The notes beneath the pieces are model-generated. The model ran no database searches, was not told the DNA's origin, and saw nothing but the letters and a program-made list of their open reading frames with translations. 64,000 nucleotides of DNA from Candidatus Multivorans sp. (lineage in GTDB: Bacteria; Acidobacteriota; Thermoanaerobaculia; Multivoradales; Multivoraceae): contig OZ251997.1 of the NCBI GenBank assembly GCA_965247095.1, positions 4,387,689-4,451,688 on the forward strand, written 5' to 3'. The position numbers were made by a program, and so were the translations under genes. Below, in pieces: positions 2,198 through 53,557 of the stretch. Position 1 is the first letter of the stretch. Every line of letters begins with the position of its first letter.

Positions 2198-3901
2198 CTA
2201 TCTCCGCAGCCGGACGCGCCGGTTGGCCGGCAGGTCGCGCAGCACGAGGGCTTTCTCCGCGGGAGGTTGGCGCACGGTCAGGCGTTCGACCCGTTCCTCG
2301 TCCCCGAGTCCGAAGAAGAGGGTCTGGGTGCTCTGAGACAGGTAGGACGAGCCCGCCCGCACTTCTCGAATCTGCGTCCCTCCACCTGTCGTGAGCACCA
2401 CTCGGGCGCCGATCGTTCCAGGGCCGCTCCCGTTGTGCGAAGAGAAGCCGAACGCAAGCCACCTCCCGGAAGTCCGGTTCTCGTACGTTTCGGATAGCTG
2501 GTTCGAGTTGACGACCACCACGTCGAGGTCGCCGTCGAGATCGAGGTCGGCGACCGCCGAGCCGCGGCTGGTGCGCACGGCGTCGAGACCGACATCGCGC
2601 CGCTCCCGGAAGCGCCCACCGCCCAGGTTCTCGAACAGTTGGTTGGGTTGCTCGTACGTTCCGACTTCGCCGATACGCGCCGCGTTCGGCTGGATGTGGC
2701 CGTTGGCCACGAACAGGTCGAGATCACCGTCGAGGTCGGCGTCCAGGGCATTGACACCGAAAGCCAGGCGCTGCAGCGAAGGCTGGGCCAGCCCCGACGG
2801 GAAGCGCTGGTCGAGGAAGACACCGCCGCCGGCGCTGCGGTAGAAGGCGTTCGTCTCGAGCGCGAAGTTGGTCACCACCAGGTCCTGTAGACCGTCGCCG
2901 TCGAGGTCGGCCAGTTCGACCCCCATCCCGGCCTCCGCGTTGCCGCTTCGGTCATAGGCGGCGCCGGAGAGCAGCGACTCGTCCTCGAACCGGCCGCCGC
3001 CGAGACCGCGGAAAAGCAGGTTCGGATCCTTGTCGTTGGCCACGTACAGATCGGGCCAGCGGTCACCGTCGAGATCGCCGATCACCACGCCGAGGCCTGC
3101 CTCGGCGACGGTGTCGAGGCCGCTGGCGGCGGTCGCGTCGACGAAGTACCCGTTGCCGTCGTTGAGGTAGAGGCGGTCCGGCACGCCGTTGTACATGTCG
3201 GGGTGGCAGTAGCCGCGTTCGGGCTTGCCGGTGTCGCCGTCCGACCTCTTGTTTGAGGCGCCAAGGCCGCAGAACTTGTTGTTCGTGACCGAGAAGTCGG
3301 TGTAGTTCGCCACGTAGAGGTCGAGGTCGCCGTCCAGGTCGATGTCGCCGAAGGCGGCCGAGGCGCTCCAGCGGGGATCGTCGACGCCTCGCTCCGTGCC
3401 GGCGGCCCGGAAGCTGCCGTCGCCCAGGTTCAGAAAGAGCTCGTTGTTGCCGAATGCAGTGACGTAGAGGTCGAAGTCGCCGTCGCCGTCGATGTCGCCC
3501 GCGGCGCCGCCGATGCCGTAGCCGCCGATGTCGATGCCGGCTGGGCCCGTCACATCGGCGAAACGCGGGGAACCGGCGCCCGTGTCGTTGCGCAACAGCC
3601 GGGATCGCGGCGGCGGACCGTCGTATCCGGGGAGGATCCCGCCGTCGACGAAGAAGACGTCGTCGTCGCCGTCGCCGTCGTAGTCGAAGAGCACGACCCC
3701 GCCTGCCATCGTCTCGACCATGTACATCCGGCCCGAGACTCCGGCGTTGTGCTTGAAGTCGAGTCCCCAGGCAACGCTGACCTCTCGGAAGGTGACTTCG
3801 CCGCCGGCAGCGGAAGTCGCCAGAGCTGCAATGCCGGACAGGCCGGCCGCTGCCAGACGCGCTATGCAGGCGCCCCGCTTGCTTTCGGCCGGCGTGTTCA
3901 T
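2198..3901 (-). CDS. ASPIC/UnbV-domain protein (CRTAC1-like), secreted, FG-GAP/VCBS repeats
   Basis: 567-aa ORF with an N-terminal signal-like segment, repeated Ca-binding DxDxDG loops (DYDGDGDDDVFFVDGG, DIDGDGDFDLYVTAFG, DLDGDLDLYVAN) and a C-terminal UnbV/ASPIC segment (...IREVRAGSSYLSQSTQTLFFGLGD...). Overlaps the next gene by 4 nt. Confidence 0.85.
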   Translation of the reverse strand: MNTPAESKRGACIARLAAAGLSGIAALATSAAGGEVTFREVSVAWGLDFKHNAGVSGRMYMVETMAGGVVLFDYDGDGDDDVFFVDGGILPGYDGPPPRSRLLRNDTGAGSPRFADVTGPAGIDIGGYGIGGAAGDIDGDGDFDLYVTAFGNNELFLNLGDGSFRAAGTERGVDDPRWSASAAFGDIDLDGDLDLYVANYTDFSVTNNKFCGLGASNKRSDGDTGKPERGYCHPDMYNGVPDRLYLNDGNGYFVDATAASGLDTVAEAGLGVVIGDLDGDRWPDLYVANDKDPNLLFRGLGGGRFEDESLLSGAAYDRSGNAEAGMGVELADLDGDGLQDLVVTNFALETNAFYRSAGGGVFLDQRFPSGLAQPSLQRLAFGVNALDADLDGDLDLFVANGHIQPNAARIGEVGTYEQPNQLFENLGGGRFRERRDVGLDAVRTSRGSAVADLDLDGDLDVVVVNSNQLSETYENRTSGRWLAFGFSSHNGSGPGTIGARVVLTTGGGTQIREVRAGSSYLSQSTQTLFFGLGDEERVERLTVRQPPAEKALVLRDLPANRRVRLRR

Positions 3902-5607
3902 CGGACCACCCGCACACGCTGCCCGAGCGCCAGTCCCGGCAGCCGCAGGCTGCCCTGCCTGGGCCAGCGAATCCTGAGCTCGACGACTCCGGCGGGCGCC
4001 TCGGCATCGCCGGCCTCGTCTGCGTTGCCGGAGACTGGCACACCGAAGGTCTGGGTCAGCGGATTCTGGGACAGGTAGGACGAGCCGGCCCGGATCTCGC
4101 GCCGCTGGTTCCCGCCCCGCGACCGAAGCTCAAGCAACGCGCCGATTGCACGCCGGTTGGGTGTCCCGGTGTCGAGCAGGTCCACCTGGATCGCCTCGCC
4201 TCGAAGGTCGCTCTCGTTGCGGTAGGCCTCCGCGTGGTCATTGCTGTTCGCGATGACGAGATCGAGATCGCCGTCGAGATCGAAATCGGCGGTGGCCAGC
4301 CCGCGGCTGACGCGAACGGCTGAGATGCCGCTATCCTGGATTTCTACGAACCGGCCGCCGAGGTTCTCGAGGAGTTGGTTGGGCTGCTTGTAGGCCGCGC
4401 CGCCGAAACCTTCGTGTTCGGTGATGTTGTGGATCACGTGGCCGTTCGCGACCGCGAGGTCGAGGTCGCCATCGAGATCGAAGTCGGCCAGGTCGGTTCC
4501 GAAACCGACCCAGGGCATGGACGGTTCGGCGATGCCGGCGATGAACCGTCGCTCGAGGAACAGCCCGTCGCCCCGGTTCGCGTAGAGGGCGTTGGTCTGC
4601 CGGTCGAGGTGGGTGATGATCAGGTCCTCGAAACCGTTGCCGTCGATGTCGCCGACGGCAATGCCCATGCCGGCCTCGGGCTCGCCGCGGTCCGACAGCG
4701 CGGTGCCGGCGAGAAGAGCATCGTCCTCGAAACGAAGACCCTCCGCAGTGGCCCGGTTCAGGAAGTGCAGGTTGGGGTCCATGTCGTTTGCGACGTAGAT
4801 GTCGGGCCTCCGGTCGTCGTCGAAGTCCGTGATGACGACGCCCAGGCCGGCGCCGCGAGCTTCACCGAAGCCGAACTCCGCCGTCGCGTCTACGAAGGAG
4901 GTCCGGCCCTGTTCGCGGTAGTCGTTGCGGTAGAAGCGGTCCGGCAGAGGGTCGTAGGCATCCGGGTGGCAGTAGGAGCGGATGCCGCGTTCCGGTTGGC
5001 CGCAGAGCTGGTTGTTGTCGTAGCTGAAGTCGACGTAGTTCGTGACGTAGAGGTCGAGATCGCCGTCCAGATCCACATCGCCGAACGCTGCCGAGGCGCT
5101 CCAGGAAGGGTCGGCGGCGGCGTTGTCCGGCGGTGCGGCACGGAAGGCGCCGTCGCCGTCGTTCAGCCATAGCCGATTCGGCCCGAAGGCGGTCAGGTAG
5201 AGATCGGGATCGCCGTCCCCGTCGACATCGCCGGCCACGGCGCCCATGCCGTAACTGTCGAGGAGGATGCCCGACGGGTCCGTTACGTCGACGAAACGGC
5301 CACCTTCGTTGGCCAGGTCATTGCGCAGCAGGGTCGTCCGGCCAGGCTTGCCGCCGTAGGGCGCTGGCTCGCCGCTGTCCACGAACAGCAGGTCGTCGTC
5401 GCCGTCGCCGTCGTAGTCGAACGCGACCACGCCGCTGCCCACCGTCTCGACCATGTAGTAGTCGCCCCGCCCGCCATGGTGGTGACGGAAATCGATGCCC
5501 CAGACTTCGGCGGCGTCCACGAAACGGAGGGCCCGGTCGCCTGCCGCTTCGTCGGCCGCGGTCATCGCGAGCGCGGCCGCGAGGGTTGGGATCAGGGCGA
5601 GAACCAC
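3898..5607 (-). CDS. ASPIC/UnbV-domain protein (paralog 2)
   Basis: 569 aa with the same architecture (DYDGDGDDDLLFVDSG, DVDGDGDPDLYLTAFG ... EIRAGSSYLSQNPLTQTFGV), clearly paralogous to 2198..3901. Confidence 0.85.
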   Translation of the reverse strand: MVLALIPTLAAALAMTAADEAAGDRALRFVDAAEVWGIDFRHHHGGRGDYYMVETVGSGVVAFDYDGDGDDDLLFVDSGEPAPYGGKPGRTTLLRNDLANEGGRFVDVTDPSGILLDSYGMGAVAGDVDGDGDPDLYLTAFGPNRLWLNDGDGAFRAAPPDNAAADPSWSASAAFGDVDLDGDLDLYVTNYVDFSYDNNQLCGQPERGIRSYCHPDAYDPLPDRFYRNDYREQGRTSFVDATAEFGFGEARGAGLGVVITDFDDDRRPDIYVANDMDPNLHFLNRATAEGLRFEDDALLAGTALSDRGEPEAGMGIAVGDIDGNGFEDLIITHLDRQTNALYANRGDGLFLERRFIAGIAEPSMPWVGFGTDLADFDLDGDLDLAVANGHVIHNITEHEGFGGAAYKQPNQLLENLGGRFVEIQDSGISAVRVSRGLATADFDLDGDLDLVIANSNDHAEAYRNESDLRGEAIQVDLLDTGTPNRRAIGALLELRSRGGNQRREIRAGSSYLSQNPLTQTFGVPVSGNADEAGDAEAPAGVVELRIRWPRQGSLRLPGLALGQRVRVVR

Positions 5608-7550
5608 GGTTCGCGCACCGGTTCGTTGTTCTGGTAGGAGCGGAGACGGAACTCCTGGCCCGGAGTCGGCGAGCCGCCGCGATTCCTGACCTCCTCGAGC
5701 ACTTGCCTCTGCAGGGCCGCGGCGCGCTCGAAATCGCCGACTTCGGCGAGCGCCATCGCGAGCGTCTCGCCGTGCTCCAGCGTCGGCCGCTCCGACATCA
5801 GGCGCTGGGCGATGGCCAGCGCCTCGCGGCCGTTGCGAACGCTCGGGTCGGAACTCGCTGCCAGCAGCCGCGCCAGCAGGGTGTCCAGGTGGTCCATCGC
5901 GCCGGCAGCCCGATCCTCGGTGCTCAGCAGCGCCTGGCGACCGCTGGCCAGGGCCCCGCGGGCCGACGCGTAGCGCTTGCCGAGAATGAGGGCCATGGCG
6001 CGGGCGCCGTGCCAGGCCCCGTTCGCTGGATCGCGGGTCAGCGCTCGAGCGAAGTGGCCGGCGGCTTCCGGGTAGCGCTCCTGTTGCGCCAAGAGGCGTC
6101 CGAGCAGGGCGTGGGCCTCAGCGAAGTCGGGATCGAGCTCAACTGCCTCTTGGAGGTGGAAGGCGGGGTTGCCGGTGTCCTCGTGGGCCGGCTCTTCGTT
6201 GGGCAGCGCGCCGCCTCTTTCCGCCTCGGCGAGAACCGCCAGACGGTAGTGGGCTTCGGCGCGTTCCCGCGGTGCGCCCGGGGCGGCCTCGAGCACATCG
6301 AACAGGGCGGTCCGGGCCGCCTCCGGATCCCCCGCGGCCTGGTGTGCGGCGCCCAGGGCCAACTGGGCTATCGGCATCGCCGCGTCCTTTTCCAGCACGT
6401 CACCCAGCAGCGCGATCGCCTCCGGCGCCCCGCCAAGTCGAGTCAGTACTTCGGCGTGACGGACCCGCGCCTCGAGGTCGTCGGGATCGATCTCGACCGC
6501 CCGCCGGAGGTGGCGTTCGGCACCCTCCAGGTCGCCCCGCTCGGCCAGGATGAGCGCAAGGTTGTAGTGCGGTTCGCGGTAGCTGTCGTCTATGTCGACC
6601 GCGCGGCGCATGTGCACTTCGGCGCCTGCCTTGTCGCCGAGTTCGATCAGCGCCATGCCGACGTTGAACAACGTGACGGGGTCGTCGGGGAGGGCCTCCA
6701 GTGCGGCTTCAAAGGCGCTTAGCGCGGCCTGAGCGTCGCCTCGGCGCATCGCGTCGGTGCCGCGCTTGAAGTGCGCCTCGCGACTGGCGTTCAGCCGCTG
6801 CAGGGCCGCGAACAGCGGGTCGGGAAAGCCGACGCGAATGTGCTGATTCCGTTCCAGGTGGAGCGCCGCCTCCTCGCGCCGGCCCAGCCGTCGGAGCGCC
6901 AACCCGATGTGGTGGTGAATGGCGGACCCGTCGGGTTGTCCCCTGAGCGCGGTCTCGAAGCGTTCGGCCGCGCGCTCGAACTCTCCGCGTTCGTAGTCGA
7001 TCCGGCCGAGGCCGAAGCGGGCGGCGGAGTACTGCTGATCGAGTTCCAGGATTCGCACATAGTCGCGCTCGGCGTCGTCGACGCGGCCGAGTTCGAGCAG
7101 GGCGTCGCCGCGGCGGGTTCGTGCCGCGAGGTCGCGGGGCGCCAGTGCAAGAACCCGGTCGAGTGCAGCGACCGTACTTTCGATGTTGCCTTCGAACGTC
7201 TCGTGAACGGCCAGAAAGTAGGGCCAGCGTGGATCGGCGGGAGCGAGCGTTTCGGCGTTGCGGAGAGCGGCGGCGGCGGGCCCCATGAAGTCGTACAGGA
7301 GGTAGAGCTGACCGAGATGGCCGAAGGCGGCTGCCAACTCGGCGTCGTCGGACTCGGGCGCTTCGAGCAGGCTGTCGACGCGGGTTCGCGCTGCCGTCAG
7401 TTGAGCCTGCACGGACTGCTCGTAGTGGTCGATCCGTGGCTGATCGAGGGACTCGAGGGCGGGCTGCGCGAGGGCCTGCAGAGGGTTCAGAGTCAAGAGC
7501 GCGACGAGCGTGGCCAGCGTGGCCGCCCCTGTTGACGGTACGGGGTTCAC
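5592..7550 (-). CDS. TPR-repeat protein, probably secreted
   Basis: Listed as 5592..7754, but the first ~68 codons overlap the upstream ASPIC gene and are Arg-rich. A GTG at ~7548-7550 gives (M)NPVPSTGAATLATLVALLTLNPLQALAQP (signal-peptide-like), followed by many TPR-like repeats (AEAHYRLAVLAEAERG..., AEVHMRRAVDIDDSYREPHYNLALILAERGDLEGAERHLRRAVEIDPDD). The start is uncertain. Confidence 0.65.
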   Translation of the reverse strand: MNPVPSTGAATLATLVALLTLNPLQALAQPALESLDQPRIDHYEQSVQAQLTAARTRVDSLLEAPESDDAELAAAFGHLGQLYLLYDFMGPAAAALRNAETLAPADPRWPYFLAVHETFEGNIESTVAALDRVLALAPRDLAARTRRGDALLELGRVDDAERDYVRILELDQQYSAARFGLGRIDYERGEFERAAERFETALRGQPDGSAIHHHIGLALRRLGRREEAALHLERNQHIRVGFPDPLFAALQRLNASREAHFKRGTDAMRRGDAQAALSAFEAALEALPDDPVTLFNVGMALIELGDKAGAEVHMRRAVDIDDSYREPHYNLALILAERGDLEGAERHLRRAVEIDPDDLEARVRHAEVLTRLGGAPEAIALLGDVLEKDAAMPIAQLALGAAHQAAGDPEAARTALFDVLEAAPGAPRERAEAHYRLAVLAEAERGGALPNEEPAHEDTGNPAFHLQEAVELDPDFAEAHALLGRLLAQQERYPEAAGHFARALTRDPANGAWHGARAMALILGKRYASARGALASGRQALLSTEDRAAGAMDHLDTLLARLLAASSDPSVRNGREALAIAQRLMSERPTLEHGETLAMALAEVGDFERAAALQRQVLEEVRNRGGSPTPGQEFRLRSYQNNEPVREPWFSP

Positions 7551-9331
7551 CGCGATGCACCTGTTGCCGCGGCGTCGGGCTCGCCGAGGCCGCGGACCAG
7601 GGTGAAGTACCGGCCCAGGCCGCCGGGAGTGAAGACCTCGCGACCACCGCCGGGCCAGGAGACGACGACGGTCGGGGCTGCGCCGGCAGCGACGAAGGCG
7701 ATGCGGGGATCGTTGGACGCCGCATAGGAACCGTCGGTGTGGAAGCGTCGCCAACGGCGTACGGTGTCATTCCCGGCGTCGCGTACGCCGACCCAGGCGC
7801 CGAGAGCGCGGCGTCCGGGTGTGCTCTCGTCTTTGCCCGCGAGTCGCAGATCGACTCCGGCCCAGGCTTGCGACGCCGGCCGGAGTTGGTTGACGAGAAC
7901 GCGCGCCGGGCCGTTGTTGGTCGCGACCACGAGATCCGGGTCGCCGTCGTTGTCCAGATCACCCGCGGCCAGCCCCCGGCTCACTTCGGAGACGATGGGG
8001 CTCTCGAAGTCCAGGATCTCCTCGAAGCGGCCGTTGCCGAGCCCGCGGAACAGTTGATCCGTCTGCCGCAGCGGCAGCGATTCACCCGCCCGGAATTGCT
8101 CCTCGATCCGCTTGACGGCGCCGTTGGCAACGTAGATGTCGAGTTCGCCGTCCAGGTCGTAGTCGAGCGCCGCAGTGCCGAAGCCGGTGTAGGAGAAGCT
8201 GGGGCGTCCCAGACCGCTGGCGCGTGTGACGTCGTCCCAGATGCCGTCGCCAAGGTTCAGATAGAGCGTGTTTGTTTCCCGGCGGAGATGGGTCATGAAG
8301 AGGTCGACCAGGCCGTCGCCGTTGAAGTCCTCCGCCAGCACGCCCATGCTCGCCTGCGGTTGGCCCGACGCGCTGACGGACGTACCGGCCATGACCGCGT
8401 CGTCGACGAAGGTGGCGCCATCGCGATTGAGCAGCAGGGCGTTGGCCTCCTGGTCGTTGGCGACGTAGATGTCGATCAGGCCGTCGCCGTCGAAGTCGGA
8501 TGCGATCGTTCCCAGGGTTGGCCGGGCGAGGTCGGCCAGACCGAGGCGTGCGGTCCAGTCCTCGAACACGCCGCTGCCGCGATTCCTCAGCACGCGGTTC
8601 GCCTCGGCCCGATAGGCCTTCGGCCCGCAGTAGTCCAGCACGCCCTCGGCTGAGGCGCACTGCTTGTGGATGGCGACCCGGAACTCGACGTAGTTACCCA
8701 CGAAGAGGTCGAGGAGACCGTCGGCGTCGAAGTCGAAGAAACTGGCAGCGGCGCTCCAACGCGGATCGGCGGTGCTGCCTTGGGTGATGTTGGTGAACCG
8801 AGCCGCGCCAGGCCCCGATTCGTTGCGCCAGAGCTCGTTCGGCCCCAGGTTCAGAATGTAGAGGTCGGGGTCGCCGTCGTTGTCGATGTCGCCGGCGGTG
8901 ACGCCCATGGCGTAGCCACGGGCGTCGAGCCCGCTTTCGGCGGTGATGTCCGTGAAGCGGAGACCGTCGCTGTCCAGGTCGTTGCGATACAGGCGGTCGC
9001 GCAGGATTGAGTCGCTGGCGTTTCCGGATGCGGGCGAGACGCCCGCGTTCCCAGGCGGCGCCAGCGGGTGCCCCTGGCCGAGGTAGAGGTCGAGGTCGCC
9101 GTCGCCGTCGATGTCGAGCAGCGCGACGGCGCCCCCCATGTGCTCGGCAAAGTAGAGCTTGTCCGTCATTCCGTTCGCGTGTGTGAAATCAACGCCGAGG
9201 TCGGCGGCGCGGTCGACGAAGACCGGCTTCGGATCCTCGGCAGCGAGAGGCTCAGCTATCGCGGCCGCGGCCAGGGCCAGGGCTAGGGCGACCGCTGGTG
9301 ACGGGCAGTTCCCGGACACGATGGACGGCAT
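7547..9331 (-). CDS. ASPIC/UnbV-domain protein (paralog 3) with an in-frame REP-like insertion
   Basis: 594 aa with a signal peptide (MPSIVSGNCPSPAVALALALAAAAIA), FG-GAP loops (DIDGDGDLDLYLGQG, DIDNDGDPDLYILNLG) and a UnbV tail. Relative to the two paralogs it carries an extra ~12 aa (APPGNAGVSPASGNASDS) encoded by a copy of the 32-nt palindromic repeat at 9024-9055. Confidence 0.85.
   Translation of the reverse strand: MPSIVSGNCPSPAVALALALAAAAIAEPLAAEDPKPVFVDRAADLGVDFTHANGMTDKLYFAEHMGGAVALLDIDGDGDLDLYLGQGHPLAPPGNAGVSPASGNASDSILRDRLYRNDLDSDGLRFTDITAESGLDARGYAMGVTAGDIDNDGDPDLYILNLGPNELWRNESGPGAARFTNITQGSTADPRWSAAASFFDFDADGLLDLFVGNYVEFRVAIHKQCASAEGVLDYCGPKAYRAEANRVLRNRGSGVFEDWTARLGLADLARPTLGTIASDFDGDGLIDIYVANDQEANALLLNRDGATFVDDAVMAGTSVSASGQPQASMGVLAEDFNGDGLVDLFMTHLRRETNTLYLNLGDGIWDDVTRASGLGRPSFSYTGFGTAALDYDLDGELDIYVANGAVKRIEEQFRAGESLPLRQTDQLFRGLGNGRFEEILDFESPIVSEVSRGLAAGDLDNDGDPDLVVATNNGPARVLVNQLRPASQAWAGVDLRLAGKDESTPGRRALGAWVGVRDAGNDTVRRWRRFHTDGSYAASNDPRIAFVAAGAAPTVVVSWPGGGREVFTPGGLGRYFTLVRGLGEPDAAATGASR
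9024..9055. repeat. REP-like palindromic element, type A copy, inside a CDS
   Basis: ccggatgcgggcgagacgcccgcgttcccagg: stem GCGGGCG/CGCCCGC. Same family as 16491-16524, 17927-17960, 40470-40501 and 52018-52050. Confidence 0.7.
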
Positions 9332-10884
9332 CAGGCCAGCGGCACCGGCGCGGCGGTCAGCGGCGGGCCGACGCGTGCCGTTCGCCCGTAGCCCAGGTTG
9401 TGGAGCACGTCCTCGGTCGTATGCCCCGGCACGATGTCGCAGAGGAAGCCGCCGTTGTCGTCGTCGTCGATCAGGAGTTCGGTCGCTTCAGGGAGGACGC
9501 AGTGTTTGCTGCCGCGCACGCCGCCGAGCATCTCCTGGTAGGCGCCGACCGAGAAGAAGCCCACATGCAGCGGCGTCTCGCGTAGTTCGGAAGAGGTCAG
9601 GTCCGGGAGGAAGAGTGACACCGTGCTGCCGCGGGGTGGGTAGACGTCGTCGCGGTCGCAGGTGATGCCGCCCAGGCGCACACGGTGGAAGGGCCGGTCG
9701 AGGTGGTTGAGAGGCAGGCAGATGAAATGCTCGCCCAGGGCCCACGTGTCCGGGAAGGAGGTCATGATCGAGCCGTCGACCAGGTACCAGGGAAGCTCGG
9801 GGCTGTTCGGCTTGACCGAGATGACCCGGAACAGGTGGGCCGCGTGCTCGGACACGGTGTAGCGCCCGAACTCGCCGATCAGCGCCGGCGGCCTGGAGCC
9901 GTGGGCGGCGCAGCGTGCGGTCGCGGTCTCGAGCAGCCGGCGGGCGAAGAGGTCGTAGTCGAAGCTGCCGTCGAGTGTGGTCCTTCCGGGCACCCCGCCG
10001 CCGAAGTCGAAGAAGCGGAGTTCCCGGTGGTGGCGGCCGAGGCGAGCGTAGAGATCGAGCGCCGGTTCGAGAGCCGTGACGAACTCCTCCTCGTCGCTGC
10101 TTGCCGAACCGAACATCGCGTGCAGGAGGACGAAGCGCGTTGCGGGCGTCCGGTCGATCTCGGTTGCGAGGCGCTCGGCCTCGGCGGCATCGACGCCGAA
10201 ACGCGAGTCGCGATCGGCCAGCCGCGTACCGTCGAGCCGGGCGGCGGCGCCGGCCCTTGGGCCCCGCAGCCTGAGGCGGACTCCGATCTCGAAGGTCAGG
10301 CCGCTGCCGGCGAAGGTTTGAAGCTCGGAGGCGTCCTCGAGGATGGGGATCGTGCCGCGGTGTTCGCTCCGGAGCGCGACCAGGTTCTGCGCGTAGTCGC
10401 TGCCCGGGCCCTTGAACCCGTTCGCGAGCACGAGCCGATCTTCGGGCAGTTGGCCGGATCGGATCATGCGCCGGGCGATCTCGACGTCGACGTTCGACGA
10501 CATCTCGTGGTGAGCGCCGGCCGCCAGAGTCGAGCGGACGATCTCCTCGGCGGTGTTCGCCTTCGAGGCGAAGGCGAAGTGGAACGGGGCGGGGTAGCCG
10601 ACCAGGTCGATCGCACGGTCGAAGCAGCGTTCCATCGCCGTCACCTGGGCGCGGATGTTGGGCAGGAAGGCGATCTCGAGCGGACTGGGCATGGGAGTCG
10701 AGGGCAGGCCGGATGCCGGGACGCGTCCCGGCTCGAAGAAGGCAGCGAAGTCCAGCCCGTGCGCTCTCAGGCGGCCGCCCGCCGCTTCGAGGAAGTGGTT
10801 GAAGCGGTACCCGTCCGGAACCGGCGCCGGCGACTGCCAGCCGATCCTGCAAGGTACGGAAGGCGGCGCTTGACTGGAATCCAT
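9331..10884 (-). CDS. PLP-dependent decarboxylase, Orn/DAP/Arg decarboxylase fold (arginine-decarboxylase-like)
   Basis: 517-aa ORF. FAFASKANTAEEIV resembles the PLP-Lys region (the conserved K-A-N). The C-terminal GGITCDRDDVY resembles the substrate-binding C-D-x-x-D motif of this family. Its stop overlaps the ASPIC3 start by 1 nt. The family call is from motif memory only. Confidence 0.55.
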   Translation of the reverse strand: MDSSQAPPSVPCRIGWQSPAPVPDGYRFNHFLEAAGGRLRAHGLDFAAFFEPGRVPASGLPSTPMPSPLEIAFLPNIRAQVTAMERCFDRAIDLVGYPAPFHFAFASKANTAEEIVRSTLAAGAHHEMSSNVDVEIARRMIRSGQLPEDRLVLANGFKGPGSDYAQNLVALRSEHRGTIPILEDASELQTFAGSGLTFEIGVRLRLRGPRAGAAARLDGTRLADRDSRFGVDAAEAERLATEIDRTPATRFVLLHAMFGSASSDEEEFVTALEPALDLYARLGRHHRELRFFDFGGGVPGRTTLDGSFDYDLFARRLLETATARCAAHGSRPPALIGEFGRYTVSEHAAHLFRVISVKPNSPELPWYLVDGSIMTSFPDTWALGEHFICLPLNHLDRPFHRVRLGGITCDRDDVYPPRGSTVSLFLPDLTSSELRETPLHVGFFSVGAYQEMLGGVRGSKHCVLPEATELLIDDDDNGGFLCDIVPGHTTEDVLHNLGYGRTARVGPPLTAAPVPLA

Positions 10885-16490: not shown

Positions 16491-16524
16491 CCCCTGGGAA
16501 CGCGGGCATCCTGCCCGCATCTGG
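16491..16524. repeat. REP-like palindromic element, type A copy, plus orientation
   Basis: cccctgggaacgcgggcatcctgcccgcatctgg, immediately downstream of the eno stop. Stem GCGGGCA/TGCCCGC. Confidence 0.7.
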
Positions 16525-16534
16525 CGCTCAGGGG

Positions 16535-17920
<1,386 letters not shown>

Positions 17921-17926
17921 CTACTA

Positions 17927-17960
17927 CCGGATGCGGGCAGGATGCCCGCGTTCCCAGGGG
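17927..17960. repeat. REP-like palindromic element, type A copy, inverted relative to 16491-16524
   Basis: ccggatgcgggcaggatgcccgcgttcccagggg, in the eno upstream region. Confidence 0.7.
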
Positions 17961-28628: not shown

Positions 28629-28731
28629 GCCCCTGGGCACCCGGGTGGCGCGATCCGCGCCACCCGCGAACCACTCCGTGCGCCCGTCATCGGACCCACG
28701 GATGGCACGCGGGCGTCTCGCCCGCATCCGG
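28629..28731. repeat. Composite MITE/REP-like element (type B + type A halves) between the MBL hydrolase gene and pfkA
   Basis: cccctgggcacccgggtggcgcgatccgcgccacccgcgaaccactccgtgcgcccgtcatcgg... followed by ...cacgcgggcgtctcgcccgcatccgg. Internal 10-bp inverted repeat GGGTGGCGCG/CGCGCCACCC. Its reverse strand encodes the recurring MTGARSGSRVAR... pseudo-peptide. Confidence 0.7.
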
Positions 28732-40469: not shown

Positions 40470-40501
40470 CCGGATGCGGGCAGGATGCCCGCGTTCCCAG
40501 G
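40470..40501. repeat. REP-like palindromic element, type A copy
   Basis: ccggatgcgggcaggatgcccgcgttcccagg, in the leuS-rpmE2 intergenic region, preceded by a second small hairpin ggcgcttcgcgcc. Confidence 0.7.
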
Positions 40502-40534
40502 ATCGGAGCGACAGGTGGTTCCCCACATAGGAGG

Positions 40535-51895: not shown

Positions 51896-52050
51896 CCGTG
51901 AACCAGTCCGTGCGCCCGTCAATCGGGCGCACGGATGGCACTCGTCGCGGCGTTCGCCGGTCACGAGGGCTCCTCGGGCGTGTCGGGGGGCGCTGTGCAG
52001 TCGTCGTTCCCGGGCCCCGGATGCGGGCGAGACGCCCGCGGTCCCAGGGC
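51868..52050. repeat. Composite MITE/REP-like element (type B half ... type A half)
   Basis: gaactcgggtggcgcgacccgcgccacccgtgaaccagtccgtgcgcccgtcaatcgggcgcacggatggcac...ccggatgcgggcgagacgcccgcggtcccaggg. Overlaps the 3' end of the Rieske gene and the 5' end of the next gene. Confidence 0.65.
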
Positions 52051-53079
52051 CGGCTCGGCGTGCGTACCCGGCGGGTTCGGCCTCGGGTCGACGAGTACCC
52101 GGCCACCCTCGACGCGGACGTTGAAGGTCGGGATCGTCTCGGTGAAGGGCGGCGGCGAGCATCCGTCCTCAGGGCGGTACTGGTAGCCGTGCCAGGGGCA
52201 GGTGATGCAGCCGTCGATCACGCGGCCCTCGCCGAGCGGCCCGTTCTGGTGCTGGCAGACGTTCGATACGGCAGCGATCTTCTCGCCGCCATCCGTCCGG
52301 TAGCGGAAGACGGCTACCCGCTCGCCGCTGAGCACGAAGATGCGGGCGCGGTCGAGGGGGATGTCCGAGACCGCGCAGACATCGACCGCGGCGTCATCGG
52401 TGGTCGCCGCCGGGGACGACGCGCGCCCCCGCCAGCCCGCAACCAGGTGCAGCGAGGCGATGCCGACGAACCCCACGCCGAGCAGCCCCGCGAGCTGGGC
52501 AGGCCGTTCGGCCGCCTGCAAACTGCCCAGCGCCACGTGGACGAGGATCAGCCCGTAGGCGACGTAGACCAGCATGTGCAGCGACTTCCACACCGGCGCC
52601 GTCAGGTTCGCGAGCCAGAAGTCGTGCGAGGTCGCCGCCATCAGGAACAGGATGACGAGCGCCGTGAGGCCGAGCGCCTGGAAGGGGAACTGGGTCAGGC
52701 TGTCGTAGTTGCCGTTGCTCGCCAGCACGCTGACCAGGGGATTCAGGACCCCGAGACCGTGGAACTGGACGACAGCGAACCCGCCGTGGGCGGCCGCGAG
52801 CAGGAACATGCAGACGCCGAGGTGGCGGCGGTTGTAGAGCAGGGGCAGGAAGCGCCGGTCGAGCCGGCACAGCGGACCGATGGCGAGCACCACGTGAAGC
52901 AGCAGCAGGGCGCCCGCGCCCAACGCCCGGATGAGCAGGGTCTCGATCGTTGCCTGGGGCCGCGTCGAGATGCCGATGCCGACGAACAGGCCCAGGAAGA
53001 CCACCACGCCTACGGCGACGCCCAAGTCGTAGAGCCTCTTGTTGCGGTTCCAGAGAACCGCCTGGTACCCGGCGCTCAT
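51961..53079 (-). CDS. Ferric-reductase-like (heme b) transmembrane domain fused to a Rieske [2Fe-2S] domain
   Basis: The real start is the ATG at ~53077-53079 (MSAGYQAVLWNRNKRLYDLGVAVGVVVFLG...). The TM region has paired His (LLLHVVLA, AAAHGGF, TSHDFW, KSLHMLVY). The C-terminal Rieske motif is CQHQNGPLGEGRVIDGCITCPWHGYQY (CxH...CxxH). The last ~30 aa (...GPRASRPHPGPGNDD...) are repeat-encoded. Confidence 0.7.
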   Translation of the reverse strand: MSAGYQAVLWNRNKRLYDLGVAVGVVVFLGLFVGIGISTRPQATIETLLIRALGAGALLLLHVVLAIGPLCRLDRRFLPLLYNRRHLGVCMFLLAAAHGGFAVVQFHGLGVLNPLVSVLASNGNYDSLTQFPFQALGLTALVILFLMAATSHDFWLANLTAPVWKSLHMLVYVAYGLILVHVALGSLQAAERPAQLAGLLGVGFVGIASLHLVAGWRGRASSPAATTDDAAVDVCAVSDIPLDRARIFVLSGERVAVFRYRTDGGEKIAAVSNVCQHQNGPLGEGRVIDGCITCPWHGYQYRPEDGCSPPPFTETIPTFNVRVEGGRVLVDPRPNPPGTHAEPALGPRASRPHPGPGNDDCTAPPDTPEEPS

Positions 53080-53282
53080 GGTTGCGCTTCCGCGTCCGGA
53101 TCGTCTTCGCTCGGTTCGGGCGCGTCTGGGGGTTCTACCCAGGGCGCGTCGATGGCGGTGGGCAACTTGTCCACGAGCGGCGGTTCGGGGCGCAAGAGGA
53201 GCGCGGCGGTTAGCAGCCCCGCCACGATCGGGGCCAGCACCGCCCAGACCAGACGGTGACGCCGTCGCAAACCGCGGATCAC
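53076..53282 (-). CDS. Small hydrophobic protein (68 aa), translationally coupled
   Basis: MIRGLRRRHRLVWAVLAPIVAGLLTAALLLRPEPP... 4-nt overlaps at both ends with its neighbours. Confidence 0.4.
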   Translation of the reverse strand: MIRGLRRRHRLVWAVLAPIVAGLLTAALLLRPEPPLVDKLPTAIDAPWVEPPDAPEPSEDDPDAEAQP

Positions 53283-53557
53283 GGGGAAACCCGCCTCTGC
53301 CGACCGGCGGCCGCGTCACGGTGAGCGTTGCGCTCCGTCGGAGGCTGCCGGCCGGTGAGCCACCTCAGTAGGACCACCGGCCACAACGCGGCAACGCCGG
53401 GCAGGATGATGAGCCGAAAGCCAAGGCCGGTTGCCTTGGCGGCAGGATCGACGCGGCCCACGCCGCGCCAGACGAAGAACGGGGCGAAGGCCAGTCCACA
53501 GGCGATGTACACGGCGCAGAGCAGCACCACGACCTCGGCGGCGCGCTCGATGGACAT
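53279..53557 (-). CDS. Small membrane protein (92 aa, two TM helices)
   Basis: MSIERAAEVVVLLCAVYIACGLAFAPFFVW...LIILPGVAALWPVVLLRWL. Confidence 0.45.
   Translation of the reverse strand: MSIERAAEVVVLLCAVYIACGLAFAPFFVWRGVGRVDPAAKATGLGFRLIILPGVAALWPVVLLRWLTGRQPPTERNAHRDAAAGRQRRVSP

Follow-up and report, generated by a model that had tools for sequence, protein, structure and literature searches.

A 32-nt palindromic repeat lies in frame inside a protein-coding gene of Candidatus Multivorans sp., and further copies of it occur elsewhere in the same DNA. How did such an element enter the gene, how long has it been there, and how does the protein bear it? We addressed these questions in the window, i.e. 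the whole stretch of 64,000 nt that was analysed, and in related loci of other genomes (L001, L002 and so on).

The embedded repeat and its hairpin

The features around the embedded repeat are the following.

9024-9055, minus strand: REP element, GTCTC loop variant, minus-strand reading 5'-CCTGGGAACGCGGGCGTCTCGCCCGCATCCGG-3'
8994-9023, minus strand: 30-nt 'tail' on the 3' side of the REP in the gene sense, AAACGCCAGCGACTCAATCCTGCGCGAC..., nucleotide-conserved together with the REP in six ortholog lineages
7547-9331, minus strand: host gene of the CRTAC1/ASPIC family, 594 aa, with signal peptide, FG-GAP/VCBS beta-propeller and UnbV_ASPIC domain
8996-9070, minus strand: segment of the host gene coding for a hypervariable loop, aa 88-112, flanked by strands 81-84 and 113-117
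3898-5607, minus strand: CRTAC1/ASPIC paralog ('ASPIC2') without the element
2198-3901, minus strand: CRTAC1/ASPIC paralog ('ASPIC1') without the element

The 32-mer found at 9024-9055 of the window, CCGGATGCGGGCGAGACGCCCGCGTTCCCAGG, forms a hairpin with a 7-bp stem (9030-9036 pairing with 9040-9046), a loop of 3 nt (9037-9039) and an outer stem of 3 bp. Its DNA fold has -11.3 kcal/mol and z = -3.1, and the fold energies of the family range from -10.6 to -11.3 kcal/mol with z of about -3. The stem-closing pair 16-20 covaries among the 161 unique copies that we collected, being G:C in 101 and A:T in 56 and paired in 159, and both positions were left free in the search pattern by which these copies were obtained. 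Moreover, one orthologous copy at the 3' end of a gene has as its sole change a compensatory replacement of A:T by G:C. The hairpin of the window could be lengthened by an outer stem of 8 bp (CGCUGGCG with CGCCAGCG), which was dropped because it is broken in the orthologs L007 and L004. Searching the whole window with the Rfam covariance models gave no match at gathering score. The 30-nt tail lies outside the repeat family; it was considered as a degenerate second REP copy and rejected, since the local alignment reached only P of about 0.05-0.11 and 10% of the windows of the gene score equally.

In the host gene the REP makes up codons 93-103 and is translated as PGNAGVSPASG, within ...APPGNAGVSPASGNASDS.... 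An in-frame translation inside ORF 7547-9331 had been reported in a preliminary description of this locus, and the ORF is indeed a genuine gene, matching FG-GAP_3 at 7.6e-43 and UnbV_ASPIC at 22.5 bits, the latter just below the cutoff of 23.4 that the orthologs pass. It is intact and under purifying selection, with dN/dS of about 0.2. The length of the element had also been thought to keep the reading frame, which is not so: 32 is not a multiple of 3, and hence the length of the REP alone cannot preserve the frame.

The loop that received the element

The AF2 model of the host protein had a pLDDT of 87 and a pTM of 0.89, and its best match in the PDB was murine CRTAC1 (9etn_A, E = 5e-26, TM 0.66-0.70). 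The preliminary description had raised the question whether the segment falls in a surface loop of the beta-propeller, and this is where the model puts the REP-encoded residues 96-103, with pLDDT below 50; the REP-derived segment is thus predicted to be a floppy surface loop, modelled at low confidence. None of the six frames of the 32-nt REP contains a stop codon, and the PGNAGVSPASG peptide is small, uncharged and flexible. Because of this peptide, the host protein tolerates the REP as a disordered surface loop.

Both paralogs in the window show a gap of 13 residues where the REP sits, and to this extent the insertion of about 12 aa that had been deduced from the paralogs is borne out. However, homologs at 50-58% identity, which are nearer to the host protein than the paralogs of its own genome, have a loop of nearly equal length (22 versus 24 residues), so that the element cannot be said to have added a loop. 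The sequence of this loop in distant homologs is unrelated to the REP peptide. Since the loop already had about the same length in these homologs, the REP would have landed in, or partly replaced, an existing hypervariable loop. For the same reason, together with the hypervariability of the loop and the lack of a clean empty site, the footprint of the insertion cannot be reconstructed in the host gene. Filled and empty sites of the enolase region were also compared for a footprint, and their flanks were too diverged for the junctions to be read.

A RAYT-linked REP family

Beyond 9024-9055, five more REP copies are present in the window, one of them inside the last gene listed.

16493-16524, plus strand: REP, ATCCT variant with ATCTGG end, 11 nt past the enolase stop codon, in opposite orientation
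17927-17958, minus strand: REP, ATCCT variant, in the spacer of the divergent enolase and PQQ-propeller genes
28700-28731, plus strand: partial REP; stem, loop and right end intact, left end diverged, 5 mismatches
40470-40501, minus strand: REP, ATCCT variant, in the spacer of the convergent FeoB and LeuRS genes
52017-52048, minus strand: REP, GGGACC variant, in the C-terminal tail of a gene, peptide LGPRASRPHP
51961-53319, minus strand: Ferric_reduct + Rieske gene, with the 52017 REP within its last ~30 codons

With up to three mismatches allowed, the copies at 17927, 40470 and 52017 were found against 0 expected in 100 shuffles, which is clearly better than the chance level for a G+C-rich palindrome that had been a concern at the outset. 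The core GCGGGC-N5-GCCCGC occurs six times in the window against 0.12 expected, and searching for it added a match at 16502, belonging to the full copy 16493-16524, and the partial copy 28700-28731. The repeat family of the preliminary description, with the 9024 copy as a member, is therefore real, with two starts moved (52018 to 52017 and 16491 to 16493); the term 'intergenic' does not fit the copy at 52017, which lies in a gene tail. This copy is identical to the orthologous copy of L066 at 32 of 32 positions, the site of the 17927 copy is empty in L001 and L002, and the 40470 copy carries a second hairpin, CCGGCGCGAAGCGCCGG, at its 3' end. Intergenic REP copies in general turn over between close genomes, and the sequence immediately beside conserved REPs is unusually divergent.

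Exact matches to the pattern were present in at least 101 blocks of 8 kb, nearly all of them from Ca. Multivorans MAGs, and about nine Candidatus Multivorans genomes are represented among the matches listed. Because the 161 unique copies were collected by an exact stem pattern, they overstate the homogeneity of the family. The great majority (143/161) lie outside coding-like frames and 18/161 overlap coding sequence; 27% of the family are of the ATCCT variant, and a second small hairpin overlaps the 3' end in 41/161. The borders are sharp at 32 nt and the flanks are unrelated across the 161 sites, with flank logos of at most 0.6 bit per position and CCGC, CTGA and CGCG as the commonest flank 4-mers. 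Some copies stand alone, and others form inverted pairs or tandem arrays.

We searched the ORFs by phmmer with E. coli RayT as query, and found a REP-associated tyrosine transposase (RAYT) in L077 (OZ242222.1), a related Candidatus Multivorans genome. This ORF fragment of 114 aa reaches 87.4 bits with NCBIfam NF047646 REP_Tyr_transpos, whose cutoff is 80, gives 30.2 bits with Pfam Y1_Tnp and has an E of 6e-10 to E. coli RayT. Four tandem REP copies directly adjoin its 3' end, on the one flank that is visible in this cut locus. There is no RAYT within the 64-kb window, and the inverted REP pairs of L020 and L038 enclose a TRAP-type solute receptor and otherwise unrelated ORFs, with no RAYT among them. 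Direct repeats of 2-6 nt at the borders are no commoner than in shuffled pairings, giving no sign of a target-site duplication, and the terminal tags GTAG and CGTC are absent from the flanks of the sampled copies. By its structure and its RAYT linkage, the 32-nt family is a true REP family, and it belongs to neither of the tagged superfamilies.

MITEs such as ERIC, Correia and Nezha measure 70-500 bp, carry terminal inverted repeats and show target-site duplications, none of which holds for the present family. It resembles them in being made of small non-autonomous repeats that form transcript hairpins and occasionally lie in frame within genes, and was not assigned to them because of its 32-nt length, its sharp borders and the absent target-site duplication.

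Other genes hit and the frame of coding copies

Several other genes carry the element. In a GlcE-like FAD-binding gene, a clean in-frame REP insertion of 14 aa is found in one subclade only, which includes the genome of the window, and is missing in all outgroups. A second CRTAC1 paralog has a REP in the same loop as the host gene, and here the GTCTC variant (PGNAGVSPASG) is present in one subclade and the ATCCT variant in another. In-frame copies are also found in a helicase gene, a HisA/HisF gene, a DsbA-like gene and the gene of a Reg_prop protein, and C-terminal tails hold eight more copies. Coding hits are confined to loops, linkers and C-terminal tails. The PGNAG frame is used by 10 of 13 independent coding copies, and the binomial probability that at least 10 of 13 share one of the six frames was estimated by hand at about 3e-6. 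This enrichment presumably reflects selection that filters the surviving insertions.

Age and conservation of the embedded copy

The REP is present at the same site, in the same frame and in the same orientation in L001, L002, L004, L006, L007 and L011, with 0-3 mismatches; these genes are 75-90% identical in nucleotides to that of the window (dS 0.26-0.85; synteny conserved). Homologous copies in L010, L009 and L003 have decayed, so that alignment of the orthologs, which had been expected to show the segment as present or absent, gave a mixed answer. A segment shared with divergent nucleotides, which the preliminary description would have taken as ancestral, is seen in some lineages; elsewhere the pattern is reversed, and diverged alleles carry identical nucleotides. 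The idea of a captured mobile repeat holds in so far as a member of a RAYT-linked family sits in an intact gene, but the capture is not recent, for at least six other lineages share it at the same codon. Judged from these alignments, the embedded REP appears to be old and shared by several species-level lineages of the genus, the event being either old or recurring.

The seven intact copies of the host gene are all of one variant and have an identical left junction. Intact and decayed copies are interleaved across the gene tree, and they alternate even between sister alleles whose identity beyond the block is 87-90%. Because the intact copies are scattered, a single ancient insertion requires many independent decays together with long-term maintenance of the element.

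Conservation is also visible at the nucleotide level. Among seven lineages, 7 of the 9 amino-acid-invariant codons of the REP are also codon-invariant, compared with 99 of 305 in the rest of the gene (Fisher p = 0.008, a modest strength for a region that was defined a priori). The block containing the REP is the longest identical run in those allele pairs that diverge most, and it runs 30 nt past the REP. Since this tail lies beyond the element, forces specific to REPs fail to account for the extension. The near-consensus synonymous sites of the intact copies suggest either that the hairpin is under selection or that it is corrected against other REP copies. It is conceivable, though not likely, that coding REPs are actively maintained and not just tolerated, either by selection on the hairpin as DNA or mRNA or by correction mediated by RAYT or recombination, and that they might be a focus of the mosaic, hyper-divergent evolution of the CRTAC1-TPR cluster. 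If this were true, active maintenance would produce the 'frozen or scrambled' dichotomy that sister alleles display.

Origin of the embedded copy

Probably, 9024-9055 is a copy of the RAYT-associated REP family of Candidatus Multivorans that was inserted long ago in a loop of a CRTAC1-family protein and has been tolerated there. We infer that REP hairpins would be mobilised in single-stranded form by the putative HUH/Y1 transposase, with no target-site duplication left behind. One REP copy entered the gene of the secreted CRTAC1-family propeller, inside a hypervariable loop that was already long, and a few additional bases alongside the REP restored the reading frame.

Recurrent acquisition, with the loop as a preferred landing site, or repeated overwriting of a decayed copy by conversion from the genomic REP pool, with young intact copies in either case, is unlikely, yet it has to be weighed. 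It would explain the alternation of intact and decayed REPs in sister alleles, the distribution of GTCTC and ATCCT variants by subclade at one loop of the second CRTAC1 paralog, the 3'-end copy that differs from its ortholog by one A:T to G:C pair, the divergent direct flanks of conserved REPs and the turnover of intergenic copies. Against it, all seven host-gene copies are of one variant, although ATCCT makes up 27% of the family, and they have one left junction. Moreover, the REP pool cannot provide the non-REP tail that is co-conserved in six lineages, and 32 nt lies at the lower limit for homologous conversion.

We consider it improbable that the 62-nt block of REP and tail was spread by short exchanges between alleles of a mosaic CRTAC1-TPR cluster, its identity then reflecting recent transfer. 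The backbone genes (enolase, decarboxylase) do have a dS of only 0.17-0.45 to the window, against 0.6-1.1 for the host gene ('ASPIC3'), TPR and ASPIC2, and further long identical tracts occur in divergent pairs, e.g. tracts of 88 and 49 nt that the window shares with L011. However, the boundaries of the block are constant in all pairs and start exactly at the left end of the REP, and the neighbouring flanks differ, so that a homology anchor for exchange is missing; the block would need to have been transferred independently six or seven times, with the same endpoints each time.

There is very little to be said for an ancestral coding segment that resembles the repeat by chance, or for the gene segment as the source of the family. 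Distant homologs do have loops of similar length, and a genome of 68.6% G+C has many G+C-rich palindromes; chance resemblance is nevertheless ruled out by agreement with the family consensus at 32/32 positions, against an expectation of 0 from shuffles, and both versions are opposed by the sharp 32-nt borders amid unrelated flanks at 161 sites, the association with RAYT, the same frame in unrelated genes and the unrelated loop sequence of distant homologs. Were the gene the source, the dispersed copies should carry bases from its flanks, and they carry none. An assembly artefact or a pseudogene deserves practically no credence, given that independent long-read assemblies from different samples repeat the structure, that the ORF is intact and under purifying selection and that the predicted fold is confident, and no point in its favour was found.

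Relation to known systems

An old, tolerated REP insertion is of a kind already known, as both intragenic REPs and Rickettsia palindromic elements (RPEs) have been published. The family shares with the REP/RAYT systems of Proteobacteria (REPtrons, REPINs) an imperfect G+C-rich palindrome of 20-40 nt that is dispersed and mostly extragenic, frequent location between convergent genes, occurrence alone, in inverted pairs or in tandem arrays, a Y1/HUH RAYT gene beside REP copies and the absence of target-site duplications. Its 3' arm, CGCCCGCATCCGGC, nearly matches the REP arm CGCCGCATCCGGC beside rayT of E. coli K-12. It differs in lacking a terminal GTAG or CGTC tag, in its host, an acidobacterial genus (Thermoanaerobaculia), and in that 18/161 sampled copies overlap coding sequence and 41/161 have the second 3'-end hairpin. 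A literature search for Candidatus Multivorans returned no papers, and the present data document a RAYT-linked REP family in this uncultured acidobacterial genus.

Di Nocera et al. (2013) described REP units lying wholly inside ORFs of known proteins, e.g. in Opitutus terrae and Rickettsia conorii, and proposed that such intragenic REPs are neutral because of their position in flexible linkers or loops (PMC3733652). Their REP classes are tagged on one side by the tetranucleotide GTAG or CGTC (PMC3733652), whereas the Multivorans REP has neither. The marked single-frame bias, the retention of one copy in several species and the depressed synonymous change go beyond that study.

As summarised in later papers, RPEs (Ogata et al. 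2000) are selfish palindromic repeats found in frame in many unrelated functional genes, RPE-1 being about 100-150 bp long and encoding a module of 30-50 aa (PMC10969869, PMC3733652). The Multivorans unit is alike in being a palindromic repeat that lies in frame in unrelated, functional genes and adds a peptide, and differs in its 32 nt (11 aa), its RAYT association and its free-living host. Membership in the RPE family was rejected, as length, host and sequence all differ and only the in-frame intragenic behaviour is common to both.

The coding copies offer a fairly clean natural experiment on the entry of selfish hairpin repeats into proteins, in which the one part that may open new ground is how the embedded copy is conserved at the nucleotide level. 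In practice, PGNAG(V/I)(S/L)PASG marks REP-derived segments in Ca. Multivorans proteins, and neither annotation nor structure prediction needs to take it for a functional motif.

The REP is translated within a genuine CRTAC1-family gene

The ORF at 7547-9331 (minus strand) matches FG-GAP_3 at 7.6e-43 plus UnbV_ASPIC, the homologs of its product that are annotated as CRTAC1 family number in the thousands, and its dN/dS against orthologs is ~0.2. The AlphaFold model of the protein (pLDDT 87, pTM 0.89) has murine CRTAC1 (9etn_A) as its best PDB match (E = 5e-26). Inside this gene, the 32-nt palindromic repeat (REP) is read through the codons CCT GGG AAC GCG GGC GTC TCG CCC GCA TCC GG(A) as PGNAGVSPASG, residues 93-103. 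Further copies of CCGGATGCGGGCGAGACGCCCGCGTTCCCAGG with ≤3 mismatches are present in the window at 17927, 40470 and 52017, where 100 dinucleotide shuffles gave an expectation of 0, which speaks against a chance match, and the core GCGGGC-N5-GCCCGC occurs six times against 0.12 expected.

REP copies in the window
9024-9055, coding (minus) strand of ORF 7547-9331: genic copy, exact sequence CCGGATGCGGGCGAGACGCCCGCGTTCCCAGG
16493-16524, reverse orientation: full copy with the core GCGGGC-N5-GCCCGC
28700-28731: partial copy with the same core
52017-52048, in the Ferric_reduct plus Rieske ORF 51961-53319 (minus strand): copy in a C-terminal tail, read LGPRASRPHP, last ~30 codons

Because the gene is real, the family recurs and a 13-residue gap is present in both window paralogs, the preliminary description of an in-frame, translated REP in an ASPIC coding sequence is confirmed as an observation, and its interpretation was right in part. 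The element was said to keep the frame by its length, but 32 nt is not divisible by three. Moreover, the insertion of about 12 residues deduced from the paralogs does correspond to the gap, but that comparison is misleading, because the loop of distant homologs is about equally long. The copy at 52017, previously taken as intergenic, sits within a gene.

The REP-encoded residues sit within the link between strands 81-84 and 113-117 in the first propeller blade, residues 96-103 have pLDDT <50, and the segment is the most variable part of the family alignment. These features are consistent with a tolerated, disordered peptide in a surface loop. The gene starts with an ATG at 9331 (minus strand) that overlaps the last bases of the Orn/Arg-decarboxylase ORF upstream of it (9331-10884; overlap region 9328-9334), an arrangement which suggests that the two genes are translationally coupled in one operon.

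A RAYT-associated REP family in Candidatus Multivorans

Candidatus Multivorans is a genus of Thermoanaerobaculia, Acidobacteriota. We scanned one genome per species with the pattern CCTGGGAMCGCGGGCNNNNNGCCCGCATCYGG, leaving the five loop positions free, and found matches in at least 101 8-kb blocks, of which nearly all those listed came from MAGs labelled Candidatus Multivorans. The 161 unique copies sampled have sharp borders at 32 nt with unrelated flanks, and their homogeneity is overstated because they were ascertained by the exact stem pattern. The free loop positions fall into the variants GTCTC (87), ATCCT (43), GTCCC (14) and ATCTT (12), so that the seventh stem pair is G:C in 101 copies, A:T in 56 and paired in 159/161. 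The REP folds into a 7-bp stem, a 3-nt loop and a 3-bp outer stem (z about -3); no target-site duplication was detectable at its borders, and Rfam gave no match to it. In 41 of the 161 copies (about a quarter) a second small hairpin, CCGGCGCGAAGCGCCGG, overlaps the 3' ATCCGG end and gives a bipartite form of ~46 nt, as is also seen in the window at 40470-40515.

A search with E. coli RayT against all ORFs of the collected sequence gave a single match to a REP-associated tyrosine transposase (RAYT), located in a locus of another genome (L077, OZ242222.1). The match, a fragment of 114 aa because the locus end cuts the gene and leaves one flank visible, carries an HUH motif; its score against NCBIfam REP_Tyr_transpos is 87.4 bits (cutoff 80), and it also matches Pfam Y1_Tnp. 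The 3' end of the gene directly adjoins a tandem array of four REP copies (period 34 nt), which makes this a genuine RAYT-associated REP family.

L077:7521-8000 (OZ242222.1, 2471521-2472000), gene on minus strand: RAYT gene and tandem REPs

Published REP superfamilies carry a GTAG or CGTC end tag, whereas the Multivorans REP has neither. Its 3' arm CGCCCGCATCCGGC is a near match to the REP arm CGCCGCATCCGGC flanking rayT in E. coli K-12 (L113, 244000-252000), a likeness that spans different phyla, the acidobacterial REP being without the GTAG tag. Both the family and its phylum-level setting are new. Exact pattern matches also occur in four loci (L068, L070, L104 and L084) of MAGs labelled Victivallales, Gemmataceae and Gammaproteobacteria; these are of the GTCCC variant, mostly with GGGACC, have a different G+C (0.61-0.74) and gave no BLAST match with the Multivorans loci. 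They may stem from a wider REP type, from horizontal transfer or from mis-binning.

The genic copy is shared by diverged orthologs

A variable loop is present at the REP position in all 74 orthologs (67-100% identity) and in more distant homologs (50-58%), where its length is about that of the host and its sequence is unrelated. Eleven loci with conserved synteny (decarboxylase, host gene, TPR and two further CRTAC1 genes) were compared. The REP is intact in six of them (L001, L002, L004, L006, L007 and L011), where its codon position, orientation and GTCTC variant all agree with those in the window and it has 0-3 mismatches, although these genes share 75-90% nucleotide identity with the window gene (dS 0.26-0.85). 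L010 holds a decayed copy, homologous codon by codon (22/33 nt), L009 and L003 retain arm remnants, and in L005 and L008 the REP is unrecognisable. In a neighbour-joining tree with the loop masked, built on a gene that probably recombines, intact copies are spread over at least five positions with decayed ones between them, and the REP block differs by 27-48% plus indels between sister alleles whose identity elsewhere is 87-90%. Such same-site copies across diverged orthologs show that the genic REP is not a recent capture in the window genome. Either it is of old date, with some lineages keeping it intact and others letting it decay, or it is repeatedly renewed.

Conservation of the REP at the nucleotide level

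Among amino-acid-invariant codons of the seven intact lineages, 7/9 are codon-invariant in the REP compared with 99/305 in the rest of the gene (p = 0.008). The conserved run reaches 30 nt past the REP (gene nt 277-338), and the most divergent pairs have no longer stretch of identity; the window and L007 agree at 62/62 of its positions while the genes are 78% identical. This 30-nt tail is absent beside every other REP copy examined, and its resemblance to a degenerate second REP copy is not significant. The conservation may reflect selection on the hairpin, copy correction or short recombination tracts. The same variant in all intact copies, the constant left junction and the co-conservation of the tail speak for inheritance with constraint, and the switches of variant at one site in the second CRTAC1 paralog and in tail copies speak for correction.

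2198-9331: CRTAC1-TPR-CRTAC1-CRTAC1 cluster, dS 0.6-1.1 against related genomes
9331-10884 (decarboxylase) and 16535-17845 (enolase): neighbouring housekeeping genes, dS 0.17-0.45

Because its dS is far above that of the neighbours, we regard the cluster as a hyper-divergent, probably mosaic locus, apparently one for surface proteins. Long identical tracts are present within its otherwise divergent alleles. In most related loci an Xre-like antitoxin and RES-toxin pair lies between a MOFRL gene and the decarboxylase (upstream observations from L002, L004, L005, L006, L007, L008, L009 and L011), and DDE transposases are also found upstream of the decarboxylase in L004 and L007.

REP copies in other genes favour one reading frame

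Coding copies elsewhere were called from coding-like GC3 on both sides followed by Pfam searches, and not from gene annotation. In-frame hosts include the second CRTAC1 paralog, where the REP occupies the homologous loop, an SNF2-type helicase with a pair of copies 51 nt apart, a GlcE-like FAD-binding protein, genes of the HisA/HisF and DsbA-like types and, in opposite orientation, a Reg_prop propeller. The GlcE-like gene has a clean insertion, in which 42 nt consisting of the REP plus CCGGAAGGCC encode 14 residues, PGNAGVSPASGRKA. Only the closest subclade, to which the protein of the window's 4.6-Mb contig belongs, has these residues; the next subclade shows them in decayed form, and all other orthologs and outgroups lack them. 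The second CRTAC1 paralog has a short loop in outgroups, a GTCTC-type peptide in one ingroup subclade and an ATCCT-type peptide and its derivatives in another, and two of its proteins (P0266 and P0289) carry a doubled REP-derived segment, e.g. PGNAEGAQPGNAGVSPASG. Doubled or tandem REP-derived peptide segments were also noted at L030:1435-1517 and in L107.

The frame giving PGNAGVSPASG is used by 10/13 independent coding copies; our own binomial estimate puts the probability of ≥10/13 sharing one of the six frames at about 3e-6. The REP is free of stop codons in every frame, and the peptides of the remaining frames are charged or rich in Arg. The best reading of the bias is that selection decides which insertions persist. 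In 2013, Di Nocera et al. (PMC3733652) catalogued REP units within ORFs of known proteins and proposed that flexible linkers or loops are where they lie, and Rickettsia palindromic elements are the classic in-frame selfish repeats (PMC3733652, PMC10969869). The Multivorans genic REP behaves like both, and adds to these cases the single-frame bias, persistence across species and a deficit of synonymous change.

Eight further copies, among them the one at 52017, lie in C-terminal tails. For this tail copy, the ortholog in L066 (753-784) has a REP identical at 32/32 positions, followed by 19 nt that are scrambled, with about half mismatched. Similarly, the orthologous copies L013:2797-2828 and L081:2866-2897, both located at the 3' end of one gene, are distinguished solely by the covarying pair (A:T vs G:C), and their junction sequences are scrambled on both sides. 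At L080:1583-3316, His_biosynth domains of HisA-like and HisF-like type share one open frame, with a REP read as LGTRASRPHP in the region of the first domain and a degenerate one in the inter-domain linker; two genes may have fused here over a REP that was once intergenic.
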